DNA of 64,000 bases, taken from Escherichia coli (lineage in GTDB: Bacteria > Pseudomonadota > Gammaproteobacteria > Enterobacterales > Enterobacteriaceae). The notes under the pieces are model-generated. The model saw nothing but the letters and a program-made list of their open reading frames with translations, was not told the DNA's origin and did no database searches. The position numbers were made by a program, and so were the translations under genes. Location of the stretch: assembly GCF_051903065.1 (NCBI RefSeq), contig NZ_CP178438.1; one strand, written 5' to 3'. Below, one piece after another: positions 15,497 through 23,724 of the stretch. How positions within the stretch are numbered: the stretch's first letter is position 1; every line of letters begins with the position of its first letter.

Positions 15497-15545
15497 ATAC
15501 TATAGGGGGGTATGCTATATGTCAATGCATACCCCCCTATAGTAT
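15497..15545. promoter_or_regulatory. frmRAB promoter operator: inverted repeat with G6 and C6 tracts
   Basis: atactataggggggtat (15497..15513) and its reverse complement atacccccctatagtat (15529..15545) lie just upstream of the frmR start, the architecture typical of CsoR/RcnR-family operators. Confidence 0.7.
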
Positions 15546-15629
15546 ATAACACTGGAGAATAATTGTTGTCCGAAGCCTAACCAGGTGAACGGTCCCTCAA
15601 GACAGATGGGGACCGTTTATGTGCTATTT

Positions 15630-16676
15630 TTATGCCGCATCCGCTAAAACAAACATCCCGTAAGGATGGATTTCGAGGTAATAGTGCTCACCAATATCGG
15701 GCTGTAAACGGGTGGCGTTTACTTGTAATAAAATCTCCTGTCCATGCCACTCTACGGTCACTTCGTACTGCGGCCCCATGTAGGCGACATGGCGAATAAC
15801 ACAACGCTGACTCTCTTCGCCGTGATTGCTTAAGGTGATGGCTTCCGGGCGAACGCCGACGGTGCCGCTACCTTGCGCCGGGAAATGCGCCGCGCGCGGC
15901 AGGCGATAACCGTAGATATCGACATACTCTTCGCTAAAGTTCGCCGGGAACAGGTTGGCGTCGCCCATAAAACTTGCCATAAATCGGGAGGCTGGCTGAC
16001 GATAGAGATCCTGCGGTGAGCCAATCTGCATGATGTGACCTTTATTCATCACCAACACAGTGTCGGACACCGCGAAAGCTTCACTTTGATCGTGAGTGAC
16101 GTAGAGCGACGTGATATTAAACTGCTTTTGCAGCTCGCGGATCTTATCGCGCATACTGCGGCGCAGGTTGGCATCGAGGTTACTTAACGGCTCATCAAAC
16201 AGCAGCACCTTTGGCTTGAGGATCAACGCGCGGGCCAGTGCCACACGCTGTTGCTGACCACCGGAAATCTGATCGACATAGCGGTCCTCGAAGCCTTCCA
16301 GATCCACCATTGCCAGCGCCTCCTTCACCCGCTGTTTCACTTCGCTACGCGAGACGCCAAGCATCTTCAGCCCGTAGCCAACGTTTTCACCCAGCGACAT
16401 ATGCGGGAACAGAGCGTATGACTGAAACACCATGCAGATATCGCGCTGTTGAATGGAACGATGCGTGACATCTTCGCCATCAATAAAAATTTGCCCTTCG
16501 CTCGGTTTTTCCAGCCCGGCAACCAGACGCAAAATGGTGGTTTTGCCACAGCCGGAAGGACCGAGCAGCGTCACCATTTGCCCTTGTGGAATGGTGAGAT
16601 TGATATTGTCGATAACCGTATTACTGCCGAATCGTTTAGTGACGTTGCGCAGTTCAACAAAATTTTTCTGACTCAT
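15630..16676 (-). CDS. ABC transporter ATP-binding protein (AfuC/FbpC-like)
   Basis: Walker [10 protein letters not shown], signature [15 protein letters not shown], Walker B LLFDEP; start placed at the MSQKNF ATG (16676) preceded by GGAG, with an alternative ATG at 16688 overlapping the upstream stop. Confidence 0.85.
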
Positions 16677-16687
16677 AGTGCGCTCCA

Positions 16688-18766
16688 TTACGCCTGGTTT
16701 TTGGCTTTAGAACGGGAGATACGAGCTTCTCCGATCAGCCAGTCAAAGAGGAAAATAATCGCCAGCATCACCACGATCAGAATCGAACCATAGGCGATGG
16801 CTACGCCATATTCGCCGTCTTCAACGCGGTTAAGAATGTAGGCGGTTGCCACGCGGGTGTCCGGCGTGACGAGAAAGACGATGGCGCTGACCGTCGTGAT
16901 GGCCCGCACAAAGCTGTAGATCAGGGCCGAGAGAATGGCCGGACGCAGCAGTGGCAGTAAAATGTGGGTTATGGTTCGCAAGGAACCTGCGCGCAGGCTG
17001 AGTGAGGCTTCATCCAGCGATTTGTCGATCTGCCCCAGGCCTGCAATCCCGGCGCGAATACCCACCGGAACGTTACGCATCACCATCGAGATAATCACAA
17101 TTGCCGCCGTTCCGGTGAGATAAACCGGAGCGCTGTTAAAGGCAAGAATATACGAAACGCCCGCCACCGTACCCGGTACGGCAAAGCACAGCATGGTGGT
17201 GAACTCGATGGTCTTTTTGCCTTTGAATTGTTGACGCACCACCACCCAGGCGATGAGCAGGCCAAAGATAGCGGTAATGGGAGCGGCAATCCCGGCGTAG
17301 AGCAGGGTATCCAGCAGTGAAGGCCACGCGCCGTCGCTCATTCCCTGACCAAATAGCTTGATAAAGTTATCCAGCGTCAGGGTGTAGTCCACGCCCCAGT
17401 TCACCGTGAAGCTGCCGTAGAAAATGCTGCCGTAGAGCAGGGCGTTAAAGGCAATCCATATCGCAAGTATGGCGACCACGCTCCACACCAGGGTGACCGG
17501 TAGCGGCTGGACGTCGCCACGGTAGGATTTGCCGGAAACCGTGACGTAAGAGCGTTTACCAATCCACATATACTGGATGCAGAACACCAGCAGCGAGAAC
17601 AGCAGCAGGAAAGCGCCAAGGGTGCTGGCGGCCTGATAATCCAGCTGCGAGCCGGTAATATAGAAGTAAATTTGCGTCGCCAGTACGTCGAAGTTACCGC
17701 CAAGTACCAGCGGGTTACTGAAATCAGCCAGTGACTGTACCACGACGATTAAAAAGGCATTGGCGAGTGCGGGCTTCAACAACGGCACAAACACGCCGTT
17801 AAAGGTTTGCCAGCGGCTGGCGCGCAGGGTGTAGGAGGCCTCTTCCAGCGAGGGATGAATGGTTTTAATGGCCCCGTCGAGGATCATAAATGCCATTGGC
17901 GTGAATGCCAGAACCTGTGCCAGCCAGATCCCGGTAAAACCGTACAGCCAGTTGGTGTTGGTCAGCCCAAACCACTCCACCATAAATTCCGTAACATAGC
18001 CGGAGCGCCCCATCATGAGCGTCACGCCTAAGCCGACCACAAACGGTGGCGTAACGATGGGCAAAATGGAAAAGATGCGACCAATAATGGCGCTGCGTTT
18101 AGCGATGCGCGTGGTATAAATCGCCAGCACCAGGCCGAAGAAAGTACAGCCTATCCCCACCGCTATCGACAAGACGATAGAGTTGACGATCACCTGAACA
18201 ATATGTGCCTGCGAGAGCACGGTCATAAACGCCAGCGGGGCGAACTCTCCCGCGTCGTTGGTGAACATCGGGATAAAAATGGCGATGCTCGGCCAGACGA
18301 TAAAAATGCCAATCAGCGCCACAATCGCAATCAGTGAGCCGATCACGAAGCGGTCGCCACCCAGCCATTCGAGGCGGGTTAAGGCCAGCGTCATAATCGC
18401 GCCTAGTTCGACAAACAGCACGATGGCGGCGTAGCCTAAACCGCGTCCAACCACGGTGGCGCTGATGACGATAAACGCCATACAGAGCAATGCCCAGCCG
18501 GCATCGAAATAATGACGGCTACGTTGTTCGCGCGTGGCCTCACTAAACGGGCGGACCAGCAACAGGCTCGGGAGTAAATACCACAGCCAGCTGATATTAA
18601 AATGCGACCAGCCATAAGCCTCGAGGATCTCATCACTCGTGGACTCCAGCAGGCCATAATCGAGGCTCCAGCTCGGCAACAGTATAAATGCCAGCCAGCC
18701 CAGCAAAACCCAAAGGAAAATCGCATCCCGCTTTTTCACGGGATGGAGTGCAAGTGTCTGTGACAT
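16688..18766 (-). CDS. ABC transporter permease, two fused transmembrane domains (AfuB/FbpB-like)
   Basis: About 692-aa highly hydrophobic ORF; probable ATG at 18766 ([12 protein letters not shown]); the ORF track extends to a TTG at 18817. Confidence 0.82.
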
Positions 18767-18834
18767 AGTAGTTCCGGTATGGTTGGCCGGGGCAGGCGTT
18801 TGTGCTGCACCCGGCAAATACGCCTAATGCGGGT

Positions 18835-19866
18835 TTATTTACCCATCTTCACTTCGCTGACCCATTTATTAATCAATGCCTTACGAACATCCGTGGAACC
18901 ATATTTATCCATGTCGTAGTTGATTAATTTCAGGTCGTCGAGCTTCAGCGAATTTGGCGACGTTTCGGCGGTGGTATTGGTCAGGATCTGATAAGACTTC
19001 CCTTTCTTCCACGCCAGTTCCTGAGCTTCTTTTGATAATACCCAGTCCACAAACAGTTTGGCGTTGTCGAGGTTGCGCGCGCCTTTCAGAATGCTGACGC
19101 CGCCAATTTCGTAGCCCGTACCTTCACACGGGGAAATCAACTCCAGCGGCGCGCCCTGTTCTTTTTCCAGCGAGTAGTCATGCAGGAAGCCAATACCAAT
19201 CGCCGTTTCGCCACGGGCGGCGTTACGTGCCGGGGCTATGCCTGATTTGGTGTACTGAGAGACGTTGGCGTTCAGTTGTTTTAGATAATCAAAGGCCTGA
19301 TCTTCCCCCCACAGCTGCGCAAAAGTAGCCAGGGCGGTGTAGGCAGTACCGGAACTTTGCGGATCGGCAATTTGAATTTCGCCTTTATATTCCGGTTTGG
19401 TGAGATCTTTCCAGCACTTCGGCACCGGCAGGTTTTTCTCTTTCAGACGATCGGTGTTTACGCCAAAACCGAGGATCCCCACATAAACGGCAGAGGACAG
19501 ATTCCCTTTCACTTTTGCCGGATCGCGGAATTTCTCCATGATCTGCTCAAGGGTAGGGGATTTATACGCCTGTAGCAGGCCCATCTCGCCAGCCTGCGAT
19601 TGCGGGTCTAAAGTGCCGCCGTACCAGACGTCAGCCTGGGGGTTTTTCTTTTCAGCATCGACTTTTGCCAGGGTGCTTCCGGAACCGTTGCGGATAAACG
19701 AGGTTTTTACATCATATTTCTCGCCAAACGCTTTGGTTTCGGCCTCACACATTTCATTGGTGGCGCTGCAATAGACCACCAGCCGGCCTTTTGCCTGCGC
19801 GGCACCCGTTAAAGTCGCCAGCGCAACGGCAGAAGCAATCAGAGTAGAGGTAAAGGTCATTTTCAT
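18835..19866 (-). CDS. periplasmic substrate-binding protein (AfuA/FbpA-like, likely sugar-phosphate binding)
   Basis: Starts MKMTFTSTLIASAVALATLTGAAQA (signal peptide); the ATG at 19866 overlaps the stop of the upstream MFS gene (ATGA). The longer track ORF to 20193 is a frame artefact. Confidence 0.85.
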   Translation of the reverse strand: MKMTFTSTLIASAVALATLTGAAQAKGRLVVYCSATNEMCEAETKAFGEKYDVKTSFIRNGSGSTLAKVDAEKKNPQADVWYGGTLDPQSQAGEMGLLQAYKSPTLEQIMEKFRDPAKVKGNLSSAVYVGILGFGVNTDRLKEKNLPVPKCWKDLTKPEYKGEIQIADPQSSGTAYTALATFAQLWGEDQAFDYLKQLNANVSQYTKSGIAPARNAARGETAIGIGFLHDYSLEKEQGAPLELISPCEGTGYEIGGVSILKGARNLDNAKLFVDWVLSKEAQELAWKKGKSYQILTNTTAETSPNSLKLDDLKLINYDMDKYGSTDVRKALINKWVSEVKMGK

Positions 19867-21179
19867 TGTTTTATCCTTCGAGCGTGAGTGGTGGTGATGC
19901 CCGCCATCAGTAACGGCATCAGCAGTAAACCCATAAGTACTGCGGCGACCGAGAGTAAACTGAACATTCCCGGCCAGCCGTAGCGTTCGATGACCAGCGA
20001 CAGCGGCCAGCCTGCCAGCGCCGCGCCAAGGTAAGCGAACAGGCCGAGAAATCCGGTGATTGAACCCGCCGCAGCTTTGTGCCCACACTCCACCGCCGCA
20101 AGTCCAATCAGCATTTGTGGGCCAAAGACGAAAAAGCCCACGGTAAAAAAGCACACTGCCAGCAGAGCGTAGTGATGAACCGGTGCCAGCCACAGTGCGG
20201 CGACTGACACCATCAACCCCAACGTGAACAGCAAAATCATTGGCGCTCGTTGCCCGCTAAACAGCAAATCCGATCCCCATCCGGCAAATAACGCGCCGAG
20301 TAAGCCGCCCACTTCAAACAGCATTACCGTGGCGTTGGCGCTGAGCAGGTTGACACCGTGGCTTTCCGTCAGCCAGATATTGCCCCAGTCGTTAAGCGCA
20401 ATCCGGATCACATAAACCAGTACATAAGAGACGCCCAGTAGCCAGATCAGCGGATTTTGCAGCATGGTGGTGCGCAACATTTGCCACAGCCCCATCGGCG
20501 GACTTTGTTGTTCCTGACGTAACTCCAGCGGATCGTGACGCCAGTGACCAACTGTCGGTAATCCCTCTTCCTGGGGCGTGCCTTTGAGTTGTAGCGTTAA
20601 CCAGATCCCTAATGCCATGCTGATTATCCCCGGTGTCAGCATCGCGGCCTGCCAGCCCCACCAGTGGGCGGCAAAGGCGCTAATCAGCGGAATAATCGCT
20701 CCGCCAATGTTGATCGACATATTCCAGCAGCCCCACCAGAAACCGCGCTCATTGCGTGAGTACCAGTGGGTCAGCAAGCGGGCACACGGTGGCCATCCCC
20801 AGCCCTGAAAAAAACCGTTCAGTGTCCAGACCACAAGCAGAAGCGTAAGTGATTCGCCAAAGGCAAACACCACGTTCAATAACCCGGTGGCGAACAAGCC
20901 GACGCCCATAAAACCGCGTTGTCCGTGGCTGTCATGCCACAGTCCGGCGGTAAATTTCGACAATCCGTAGCTGAGATAAAACAGCGAACCCAGCAGGCCA
21001 ATGTCGCCTTTATCCAGTCCGAGGTCGGTTTGTAGCGCCGGAAGGACGTAATTCACGCTTTTTCGCGTCAGATAAAATGCGGCGTAGCCAATAATCATGC
21101 ACATCAGCAATCGCGGACGTAATGCCCGGTAGCATTGATTAATTTCTCTCGCTGAACGCGCGTGCATGGTTGTCTCCAT
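19863..21179 (-). CDS. UhpC-like MFS sugar-phosphate sensor/transporter (organophosphate:phosphate antiporter family)
   Basis: 438-aa ORF with 12-TM MFS character and clear similarity to UhpC as recalled (GYAAFYLTRKS, FQGWGWPPCARLLTHWYSRNERG); an alternative ATG lies 4 codons downstream. Confidence 0.82.
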   Translation of the reverse strand: METTMHARSAREINQCYRALRPRLLMCMIIGYAAFYLTRKSVNYVLPALQTDLGLDKGDIGLLGSLFYLSYGLSKFTAGLWHDSHGQRGFMGVGLFATGLLNVVFAFGESLTLLLVVWTLNGFFQGWGWPPCARLLTHWYSRNERGFWWGCWNMSINIGGAIIPLISAFAAHWWGWQAAMLTPGIISMALGIWLTLQLKGTPQEEGLPTVGHWRHDPLELRQEQQSPPMGLWQMLRTTMLQNPLIWLLGVSYVLVYVIRIALNDWGNIWLTESHGVNLLSANATVMLFEVGGLLGALFAGWGSDLLFSGQRAPMILLFTLGLMVSVAALWLAPVHHYALLAVCFFTVGFFVFGPQMLIGLAAVECGHKAAAGSITGFLGLFAYLGAALAGWPLSLVIERYGWPGMFSLLSVAAVLMGLLLMPLLMAGITTTHARRIKQ

Positions 21180-21251
21180 GTTGCTGACTATATGAAAATG
21201 AAAGTGAAAGGGGATGAGAGAAAATCCGGGATACCTAAGACTTTTTCCTGG

Positions 21252-22793
21252 TTATCCGGCGATTTGTTGCAAAAATGTGGGCAAGTTAACAATTACCCGC
21301 GTGCCGTGCTGTTTTTCGAGCGTTAAGTCGCCGCCCAGGGCGCTGACGCGCTCACGCATCCCCTGAATGCCAAATCCGGCCATTTTCCCGCTGGCGATCC
21401 CCACACCGTTGTCGCTGACCTCCAGATGCAATACCTCTCCCTGCTGGCGCAGGATAATCGTCACTTCGCTGGCTTCGGCGTGTTTACAGACGTTATTGAG
21501 CAACTCCTGCAATAACCGATACAAGGTAAAGCGCACCGTTTCGTTTTCTGGTGTGGAGTTCAGTTGATAGGCAAACTGGCAATGAATGCCGCGTTCACCA
21601 AAGGCAAATTCATTAATCAGATGCAACAACGCTTCGCGAAATGTCAGTTCATCAAGCGCGGGAGGCCGCAACTGGCGCAGCAATTGGCGGGTGGAGAGAT
21701 GAATGCGGCGGGCGAGCTCATTGATTTGGCTGGCTGCGGATTGAATTTGCGCCGGATCACGCGCCCGCTTCACCAGTTGCGACTGGATCTGAATGGCGGT
21801 GATGTTCTGACCGATTTCGTCGTGCAGCTCTCGCGCCAGGTTTTTTCGCGTGTCCTCCTCGGTGTGGATCAACTTTTCCGCCAATGCCCGCCGCGCTGCC
21901 AGCTCGGCCTCCAGCCGTTGTCGGTAATGGTGCAGGTTTAGCGCCAGATGTTGCTGGCGACTGATGGCAATGCCCAGGCCAATTCCCAGCAAGGCCTGGG
22001 TCGCGAGGAAAATCTCCAGCTCCACCAGGTTACTAAAGCCCACGCCAATCTGGCGGGCGATGGTGATCATCATGCTGCCCAAAAGCCCGGAGAGTACGCC
22101 ACCTTGCCAGCCAAATTTCCACGCCATCACCACATTGGGCAAAAAGACCACGATCAACAGCAGACGCTCAATTTCAGGTGACAGCACCATCTGAGTGCCG
22201 ATACCAATGATAAAAAACAGGCTACACCAGATGATTAAAGAGGTACGCAAGGGGGGATTATGCGTATCGAGTCCCAGGAGCTGGTAGCGATGCTGCTGGC
22301 GCAGAAACTCAAAGATAAGATAGACAAACGGCGTCAGTAATACGCCGCCGGTAAATGAGGTCAAACCCGGCAGCATTATTGGGCCTGACATAAAAGGGGA
22401 GAGCAGGGCGGTATTCAACAATGAAGCTGCCGTGACAGTGGCTAACAGCAACGTCAGACGCTGCCAGTAAAGTGGAAAACGGTGCCAGAAGTTTTGCGCA
22501 AGGAGGACAGGAAACAGGCTAATAACCGGCGTTGCCAGCATGAGATAACCGTTCAATAGCTGCTCACTATGGAGCCAGAACATCATCAGCAAAGGGGGGA
22601 GTACCAACGCAGGCCAGTAGCGGCGAGAGAGCAAAATAACAAGGGCGAGATAAACTCCCTGCGGGAGAAACAACACCGCCTGTTGACCGTTATTGGTCAG
22701 ATAAAAGCTGAGCGTCCACAGCATCAGCCAGCCGGTTCCCCAGGCCAACACAATAAACAGCGAAATCACCCAATGACGAAGATTGCGCGACAT
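21252..22793 (-). CDS. UhpB-like sensor histidine kinase (MASE1 membrane domain plus HisKA_3/HATPase)
   Basis: 513-aa ORF; the C-terminus has an H-box (RELHDEIGQNITAI) and ATPase motifs (DNGVGI, GFGIQGMRERV), similar to UhpB as recalled. Confidence 0.85.
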   Translation of the reverse strand: MSRNLRHWVISLFIVLAWGTGWLMLWTLSFYLTNNGQQAVLFLPQGVYLALVILLSRRYWPALVLPPLLMMFWLHSEQLLNGYLMLATPVISLFPVLLAQNFWHRFPLYWQRLTLLLATVTAASLLNTALLSPFMSGPIMLPGLTSFTGGVLLTPFVYLIFEFLRQQHRYQLLGLDTHNPPLRTSLIIWCSLFFIIGIGTQMVLSPEIERLLLIVVFLPNVVMAWKFGWQGGVLSGLLGSMMITIARQIGVGFSNLVELEIFLATQALLGIGLGIAISRQQHLALNLHHYRQRLEAELAARRALAEKLIHTEEDTRKNLARELHDEIGQNITAIQIQSQLVKRARDPAQIQSAASQINELARRIHLSTRQLLRQLRPPALDELTFREALLHLINEFAFGERGIHCQFAYQLNSTPENETVRFTLYRLLQELLNNVCKHAEASEVTIILRQQGEVLHLEVSDNGVGIASGKMAGFGIQGMRERVSALGGDLTLEKQHGTRVIVNLPTFLQQIAG

Positions 22794-23422
22794 TAATGCC
22801 CCGCCAGCAGATGGTGGTCGAGCGCAAAATGTACCAGTTCAATGGTGCTATGGCAGTTCAGTTTTCCCAGCACATTGGCGCGATGCACATGTACCGTTTT
22901 ATGACTGAGTTCGAGTTTAAAGGCGATCTCTTTAACGCTGTCTCCTTTGACCAGTAAATCAAACACTTCACGTTCTCGTGGGGTGAGAATTTCCAGCGCC
23001 TGGGCGGGTTGCCCGCCGCCGCGTAAAGCCCGAATCGCATCGGCACAGAGATAATGCCCGCCCAGCCCGACCGAGCGCACCGCCTGTACTAACTCTTCCG
23101 GCCCACAGCGTTTGGTTAAATACCCGCTGGCACCGGCATCCAGCGCGCTTTGCACAAAGGTTGGCGCGTCATAAATGCTAAGAATAATGGCGCGAAATTG
23201 CGGTTTTTGTGCACGCAGGCGCTTAAGCAAACTGAGGCCGTTTTCGTCCGGCATGGCAATATCAATGACGGCAACATTGACGTCATCACGGATTAATGCC
23301 GACCATGCCTGCGCGGCACTACTGTACTGACCAATGACCTCCAGATCGTCTTCCAGAGAGAGTAATTGTGCGAAGCCAGAGCGCACCACCACATGGTCAT
23401 CCACCAGCACTACCCGAATCAT
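22793..23422 (-). CDS. UhpA-like response regulator (NarL/LuxR family)
   Basis: 209-aa ORF (MIRVVLVDDHVVVRSGFAQLL...) with a C-terminal LuxR HTH (LTPREREVFDLLVKGDSVKEIAFKLELSHKTVHVHRANVLGKL); 1-nt TAATG overlap with the kinase gene. Confidence 0.88.
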   Translation of the reverse strand: MIRVVLVDDHVVVRSGFAQLLSLEDDLEVIGQYSSAAQAWSALIRDDVNVAVIDIAMPDENGLSLLKRLRAQKPQFRAIILSIYDAPTFVQSALDAGASGYLTKRCGPEELVQAVRSVGLGGHYLCADAIRALRGGGQPAQALEILTPREREVFDLLVKGDSVKEIAFKLELSHKTVHVHRANVLGKLNCHSTIELVHFALDHHLLAGH

Positions 23423-23724
23423 ACTTTTCTTCTCTTATTATCTAATTCTCCTATCATGCATCACGGCGCGGCGCTGGCAATCAACCAGCGACAGATATGG
23501 AATGGATGTAACAAAATGGCAATAATTTGCCGGAGCGCGCACATCTTATCTGGCTTGTGAACCGGCGGGATACGTTCGCCAAAACCGCAAAATGCGCAAA
23601 CTCGCTAACCATTGCCGATTTTTTTCTAAAAACGCTTTGTTCTTAACAAGACCTTTTAATTCCTTTATCAAACTGACCCGCAACGAAATACTGCTCCCAT
23701 AACAAGACAGGGGAGCAGACAATC

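Follow-up and report, generated by a model that had tools for sequence, protein, structure and literature searches.

The window analysed here is a stretch of 64,000 nucleotides (nt) of Escherichia coli DNA (RefSeq assembly GCF_051903065.1, contig NZ_CP178438.1), in which the interval between frmR and tauA, positions 15630-23422, is occupied by six collinear genes on the minus strand. An earlier note, made from the letters of the window, had described them as a Uhp-like sugar-phosphate sensing system joined to an AfuABC-like ATP-binding cassette (ABC) importer. The six open reading frames (ORFs) lie at the coordinates that it gave, and the RefSeq annotation of a 99.0%-identical O157-type strain has the same six genes. 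From upstream to downstream they are fusR (22793-23422), an ORF encoding a 209-aa UhpA-like response regulator of the NarL/FixJ type; fusK (21252-22793), an ORF encoding a 513-aa UhpB-like MASE1 histidine kinase; the z0461 orthologue (19863-21167), whose 434-aa product is identified by its ORF and NCBIfam match as a UhpC-type sugar-phosphate receptor of the major facilitator superfamily (MFS); afuA (18835-19866), identified by ORF and AfuA match as the gene for a 343-aa periplasmic sugar-phosphate binding protein; afuB (16688-18766), whose ORF and annotation give a 692-aa fused double ABC permease; and afuC (15630-16676), annotated as fbpC, a 348-aa ABC ATPase placed by its NCBIfam match and annotated start. 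The G+C content of the island, 51-57%, is ordinary for E. coli.

These genes are the orthologues of Z0463, Z0462, Z0461, Z0460, Z0459 and Z0458, respectively, of enterohaemorrhagic E. coli (EHEC) O157:H7, from whose proteins those of the window differ by 1-7 residues each. FusR differs from the O157 protein WP_000621918.1 (Z0463) at one residue, FusK from WP_000089287.1 (Z0462) at four, the Z0461 orthologue from WP_000543352.1 (Z0461) at one and the afuB product from WP_000084161.1 (Z0459) at seven; the 99%-identical strain is annotated with the very accessions that a transcriptome supplement gives for EDL933 Z0459, Z0461, Z0462 and Z0463. Judged by the shared order and flanks, these small residue differences and the shared accessions, the locus is O-island 20 (OI-20) of pathogenic E. 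coli, already described and not a discovery. OI-20 with FusKR and afuABC is in the literature, and the adjacency of FusKR and AfuABC had been noted by 2015 (PMC4546632). The earlier note had the gene content right and did not recognise the locus as the EHEC island for which roles of FusKR and Z0461 have been published. The window carries it in a non-O157 background, with the order of the regulator, kinase, MFS, binding protein, permease and ATPase genes unchanged, frmR and tauA again on either side, and with DNA 99.0% identical to that of O157:H7.

The regulator and kinase were described in the earlier note as UhpA-like and UhpB-like, and UhpA and UhpB are indeed their best NCBIfam matches. 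FusR matches UhpA at 193 bits, under the cut-off of 258 (PRK10360) and so short of a UhpA equivalog; it is 48% identical to K-12 UhpA, and the recognition-helix stretch KTVHVHRAN is identical in the two. FusK matches UhpB over its full length at 380 bits, likewise under the equivalog cut-off of 408 (PRK11644), and is 35% identical to it with the H-box ARELHDEIGQ and the N and G boxes conserved. Because this full-length match, with its MASE1 + HisKA_3 + HATPase_c architecture, stays below the cut-off, FusK is best classed as a member of a UhpB paralogue clade and not as UhpB proper. The MFS protein, which the earlier note took for a UhpC-like sensor, passes the NCBIfam cut-off for UhpC (587 against 564 bits) and fails that for UhpT (214 against 497), and it is 53% identical to K-12 UhpC and 29% to UhpT. 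It keeps R35, K71 and R255, the arginines and lysine of organophosphate carriers, and has T371 and L374 at the positions of UhpT D388 and K391, as in UhpC. Since the phosphate-binding arginines are kept and the protein scores as a UhpC, these features would fit a phosphorylated ligand, not neutral fucose.

The three remaining genes encode an importer of the Afu type, as the earlier note had proposed. The AfuA protein matches A. pleuropneumoniae AfuA (4R72; structures 4R72-4R75) with an E-value of 1e-168, and its H229, D230 and E253 align with the sugar-coordinating H205, D206 and E229 of that protein; the pyridoxal-phosphate paralogue 6WCE differs from AfuA at the Asp and Glu positions of this sugar motif. 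In afuB there are two permease-domain matches in NCBIfam, afuC scores 699 bits against a cut-off of 496 (PRK11432), and the layout is that of AfuABC, a fused two-domain permease with a single ATPase gene directly downstream. AfuABC has been shown, for the A. pleuropneumoniae and C. rodentium orthologues, to be an importer of glucose-6-phosphate (G6P), fructose-6-phosphate (F6P) and sedoheptulose-7-phosphate (S7P) that rescues a uhpT mutant on G6P and F6P and promotes colonisation (PMC4546632, Sit et al. 2015), and the C. rodentium AfuA orthologue binds sugar phosphates, the island being kept in that species (PMC4546632). It is hardly credible that the transporter is instead what its RefSeq and NCBIfam names say (fbpC, "ferric ABC transporter"), a ferric-iron importer with the Uhp-like genes as unrelated neighbours: true iron-binding proteins match AfuA at only about 1e-12, which does not place it near the iron-binding FbpA/HitA, the sugar-coordinating residues are kept, and sugar-phosphate transport by AfuABC was demonstrated by Sit et al., who argue that its iron annotation is wrong (PMC4546632). 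The database label "ferric" is, on this comparison, wrong, because the match to AfuA is so much stronger than that to iron binders and the sugar residues are intact.

The earlier note also stressed tight gene junctions as a sign of one coupled operon. Two of the three that it named can be read from the sequence, a TAATG overlap of the fusR stop and the fusK start and an ATGA overlap of z0461 and afuA, the latter pointing to translational coupling of Z0461 and AfuA. The third, a stop-start overlap of afuB and afuC, arises only with the longest afuC ORF (ATG at 16688); the start at 16676, which lies 9 nt past the afuB stop codon, is more likely because afuC is annotated there and a GGAG Shine-Dalgarno sequence is present. 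The earlier note had not dwelt on the gaps of 84 nt between fusK and z0461 and of 68 nt between afuA and afuB. The island would probably comprise two transcription units, fusRK and an inducible z0461-afuABC, because a conserved promoter-like element lies in the gap between kinase and sensor genes. The earlier note was right that uhpT is absent: no UhpT-like gene was found by tblastn mapping in the island or in 80 related loci.

The candidate promoter/operator in the fusK-z0461 gap occupies 21187-21251 on the minus strand; it is conserved in sequence, and its function is predicted. Directly after the fusK stop is a 17-bp palindrome, CCAGGAAAAAGTCTTAG in the window (21251-21235), followed 15 nt on by the box TCTCATCCC at 21219-21211, that is (G)TCTCATCC, then after 18 nt by a -10-like TATAGT at 21192-21187, and finally by the z0461 Shine-Dalgarno sequence GGAG (21177-21174) and ATG (21167). 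AfuA was searched for in one genome per species, the six proteins were mapped by tblastn and the 80 best AfuA loci were kept. The palindrome (consensus C[CT]AGGAA-N3-TTCC[TA]RG), the TCTCATCC box and the -10 element are conserved among 75 distinct gap sequences, the palindrome occurring once per locus, right after the kinase stop. No second copy of the operator was found in the window, where the sole other match, with 3 mismatches, is within chance. Of the 87 columns of the kinase-sensor gap, 34 are at least 80% conserved across 19 genera, with a mean pairwise identity of 53%; in the afuA-afuB gap of the same loci the figures are 2 of 84 columns and 23%. In nearly all loci some 75-125 nt separate the kinase and sensor genes; the longer distances computed for two loci, 278 and 413 nt, probably come from truncated kinase alignments. 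The sensor-afuA junction ranges from -4 to +60 nt in most loci and is about 160 nt in Yersinia.

The arrangement closely follows that of the K-12 uhpT promoter. Measured upstream from the -10 hexamer, the palindrome is centred at 51 nt and the inverted repeat of the uhpT promoter at 52 nt, and in the uhpT promoter a TCTCAGGCC box (TCTCA-type) lies exactly 18 nt from TACAAT, the same box spacing as in the gap. Work from the Kadner laboratory reportedly places UhpA on uhpT DNA at about -80 to -50 and at -50 to -32, footprints that would correspond to the palindrome and the box. The conserved elements also bear on another account of the importer, in which the ABC operon is mainly for phosphate scavenging and driven by PhoB and phosphate starvation, the adjacent two-component system only fine-tuning it. 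The hexose-6-phosphate system of V. cholerae is said to belong to the Pho regulon. Hexose-6-phosphate uptake (permease VCA0686) improves the fitness of that organism on transfer to phosphate-limited water, as Moisi 2013 is cited in PMC4101255. What is conserved in the gap, however, is a palindrome and a uhpT-like box, and no tandem CTGTCAT-type Pho box was seen there by eye, without a formal scan; we consider control mainly by phosphate starvation quite improbable.

Some further features of the intergenic regions may be recorded. A hairpin in the afuA-afuB gap was considered as an element and set aside, since its folding lies in the normal range (z = -1.46) and the gap lacks conservation; no role is assigned to it. 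From one genus to another this spacer measures between 53 and 191 nt (loci L002, L048, L056, L079, L080 and L081), and the longer versions may carry inserted repeat elements. In Entomohabitans teleogrylli (locus L048) a second perfect palindrome, CCAGGAAATTTTCCTGG, is present at 16540-16556 of the locus, about 2.3 kb downstream of afuC and between two minus-strand ORFs, with TCTCCTGG 14 nt on; this copy may mark a further target of the regulator or be coincidental.

The order regulator-kinase-sensor-afuA-afuB-afuC is kept in all 80 best loci whenever the contig is long enough to show it. More than 25 genera of Enterobacterales are represented, among them Citrobacter, Klebsiella, Raoultella, Serratia, Enterobacter, Leclercia, Buttiauxella, Rahnella, Erwinia, Pantoea, Yersinia, Brenneria and Ewingella, and in about 30 of the loci the module stands divergent beside tauA, as in the window. 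A search for FusK homologues covered matches down to 55% identity, and representatives clustered at 50%, one of which lacked a recorded contig, extended its reach to the Vibrionaceae, where Grimontia has the same six genes with a kinase only 37-39% identical; its gap holds CTAGGAATTTTTCCTAT, GTCTGATTT and TAATAT at identical spacing. Kinase relatives of at most 39% identity outside the clade either carry a tightly coupled uhpABC next to the gene for a UhpT-like MFS protein or have no transporter gene adjoining. Because the order is kept across more than 25 genera, often beside tauA, the module looks old and not a recent acquisition of O157, and the position next to tauA looks ancestral in the Enterobacteriaceae.

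Within E. coli, 518-519 of 5426 complete genomes (about 10%) have the whole island, including O145:H28 and many non-EHEC isolates. The others have yaiO/yaiP-type genes or an empty frmR-tauA junction, so that the statement in the earlier note of yaiO, an IS2 and yaiP at this place in K-12 was right in substance, and most E. coli seem to have lost the module. Reviews state, in the passages that concern its distribution, that FusKR is restricted to EHEC O157:H7 and may have come from Enterococcus faecalis. Since about 10% of complete E. coli genomes carry the module and many genera have it too, often adjacent to tauA, both the confinement to O157:H7 and the origin in Enterococcus faecalis look wrong on the present data.

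Variant copies were also met with. The module of 68 E. coli genomes shares only about 93.7% identity with that of the window, and in one example of this type, an E. coli G6/7 (NZ_CP060061.1, locus L083, 2768-12024), it lies at a different site by a tyrosine integrase beside ulaF, amid insertion sequence (IS) remnants; a mobile copy therefore exists besides the tauA-adjacent one. In the K-12 record NZ_CP012868.1, from which the island itself is absent, an 85%-identical copy of afuC and part of afuB is found at 4362503-4363909, presumably within the CP4-6 cryptic prophage, which would make it a degenerate second importer copy lacking the sensor genes. In Citrobacter youngae ATCC 29220 (locus L047, 8700-9014) the UhpC-like gene apparently meets an early stop, and in Leclercia adecarboxylata NCTC13032 (locus L029, 2823-9340) only fragments of the kinase, permease and ATPase align; both loci may be pseudogenised modules or assembly errors.

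Taken together, the protein relationships, the conserved order and the uhpT-like gap element lead us to read the locus, with a probability of about 0.6, as an old Uhp variant of the Enterobacterales and Vibrionaceae in which the ATP-driven AfuABC stands in place of UhpT and phosphorylated FusR activates z0461-afuABC in response to sugar phosphate. The suggestion in the earlier note that the importer takes the role of UhpT as regulated target finds support by comparison, through the invariant synteny that more than 25 genera share and through the conservation of a uhpT-like promoter. In such a mechanism fusR and fusK would be made from their own promoter and be translationally coupled, and read-through from fusRK may give a basal level of receptor. 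Z0461, as a UhpC-type membrane receptor with phosphate-binding arginines, would bind external sugar phosphate and signal to FusK, a MASE1 kinase without a periplasmic sensor domain of its own, which would then phosphorylate FusR. Phosphorylated FusR is predicted to bind within the 84-nt gap, at the palindrome (centre near -63) and at the -35-proximal TCTCATCC box, and so to activate transcription of z0461-afuABC, which would also amplify the receptor; AfuABC would then import G6P, F6P and S7P. We infer the receptor relay, the phosphorylation of FusR and its action at the promoter, and likewise what the signal is and in which direction regulation works. Import by AfuABC costs ATP but, unlike that by UhpT, needs no export of phosphate (PMC4546632).

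The published model for the EHEC genes is a different one. It holds that FusK senses L-fucose released from mucin, that phosphorylated FusR represses ler, z0461 and the fuc genes, that Z0461 helps in fucose import and that afuABC is a mere neighbour with regulation of its own. It is stated in reviews and in primary papers citing Pacheco 2012, and several points in its favour weigh against activation of the importer by a Uhp-type switch. As papers citing Pacheco 2012 report that work, FusK autophosphorylates in response to fucose in EHEC and FusR represses ler, z0461 and fuc genes; the reported repression of z0461 is opposite in sign to the activation proposed here. Citing papers also describe Z0461 as a fucose transporter that aids fucose import. 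Deletion of fusKR abolishes the repression of the enterocyte effacement locus (LEE) by fucose derived from 2'-fucosyllactose (PMC12976359, 2026). To these must be added that the UhpA and UhpB matches fall below the equivalog cut-offs, so that signal specificity may have diverged, and that a generic promoter/terminator scan of the window gave no more sites than shuffled sequences and did not flag the conserved gap element, because it has no -35 hexamer.

Fucose sensing as the primary function of the module nevertheless sits poorly with several of its features. The six genes are together in more than 25 genera without the LEE and in a genus of Vibrionaceae; Z0461 is coupled to AfuA by the ATGA overlap, keeps the phosphate-binding arginines and scores as UhpC; and the conserved palindrome is at a position typical of an activator. 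In the Uhp system UhpB depends on UhpC to detect the ligand, and FusK has the architecture of UhpB. The published FusR-binding sequence at ler resembles the palindrome no more than expected by chance. As a candidate copy of it, that sequence was rejected: its best ungapped match is 10/17 to the E. coli operator, a score reached by 241 of 2000 shuffles, and 8/17 to the consensus, reached by 1322 of 2000. RNA-seq of EDL933 in bovine gut contents found Z0459 (afuB), Z0461, Z0462 and Z0463 up together, which fits poorly with afuABC as a mere neighbour and is circumstantial support for an uptake switch. Sequence comparison points to a Uhp-type sugar-phosphate switch that drives the importer and not to the published role in fucose sensing, and we regard the published model, taken as the complete account, as rather unlikely.

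A stronger statement can be made only tentatively, and we would put it somewhat short of even odds: that FusKR is not primarily a fucose sensor at all and forms with Z0461 the Uhp-type three-component switch of an ancient, vertically inherited module, activating z0461-afuABC through the palindrome/TCTCATCC promoter on external hexose or heptose phosphates, with the fucose and LEE effects in EHEC indirect or a recent addition. The Uhp-type and fucose models are not fully exclusive, in that fucose effects could be indirect or come from a secondary input acquired in EHEC.

Comparison with better known systems sets out what the module shares with each. Its regulator, MASE1 kinase and MFS receptor are paralogous to those of K-12 UhpABC-UhpT (48%, 35% and 53% identity, respectively), and the candidate target promoter is laid out as the uhpT promoter. 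The differences are that the target is an ABC importer and not the UhpT antiporter, that the regulator does not reach the equivalog cut-off of UhpA, nor the kinase that of UhpB, and that uhpC is coupled to the kinase gene in K-12 (a 9-nt uhpB-uhpC gap) whereas here the receptor gene goes with the target (an 84-nt gap to the kinase and ATGA with afuA). With AfuABC of A. pleuropneumoniae and C. rodentium it shares an orthologous binding protein with the same ligand residues, the fused permease and the ATPase, the E. coli allele being known here from its sequence. With respect to OI-20 of EHEC O157:H7 the genes are the same, and it is the reading that differs, a Uhp-type activator of afuABC against the published fucose-sensing repressor.

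In the Vibrionaceae, where Grimontia has the same six-gene order, the V. cholerae cluster described by Moisi et al. in 2013 is said to be VCA0682-VCA0687, in which VCA0682-0684 are reportedly uhpABC-like neighbours of the importer. There too an "iron(III) ABC transporter" was re-assigned as a hexose-6-phosphate importer (VCA0686), as PMC4101255 cites Moisi 2013. Bacillus cereus SpsRK-SpsABC likewise combines a two-component system with accessory membrane or binding proteins, responds to G6P and F6P and operates in a gut setting; it differs in that its proteins are unrelated, a substrate-binding protein does the sensing and a PgtP-like transporter is the target (PMC4049939).

What is new here is the synteny across more than 25 genera and Grimontia, the adjacency to tauA and the conserved uhpT-like element in the gap; the locus itself was already known. 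FusKR is widely cited as the sensor by which a pathogen perceives fucose released by the microbiota, and it is being used as a therapeutic handle (PMC12976359). If its ancestral and main job is to switch on a sugar-phosphate importer, the signal and the role of Z0461 would need re-examination, as would the way in which EHEC and C. rodentium tie nutrient uptake to virulence control. The value left in the locus lies in a specific and testable operator/promoter prediction, and in the evidence that the module is old and widespread and not confined to O157:H7.

Three features flank the island on the minus strand. Upstream, in the fusR-tauA intergenic region, a consensus scan gave a candidate sigma-70 promoter for fusRK, TTGCCA-16-CATGAT at 23453-23480, with 9/12 matches to consensus, such sites being no commoner than chance. 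Downstream, past the afuC stop, a hairpin ACGGTCCC...GGGACCGT at 15589-15616 is a candidate transcript end that has no U-tract after it; a stretch of 63 nt that includes it folds at -18.5 kcal/mol. Farther on, at 15497-15560, a near-perfect long inverted repeat, ATACTATAGGGGGGTATGC ... GCATACCCCCCTATAGTAT, flanks a TTGACA-17-TAGTAT promoter just upstream of frmR and is presumably the FrmR operator.

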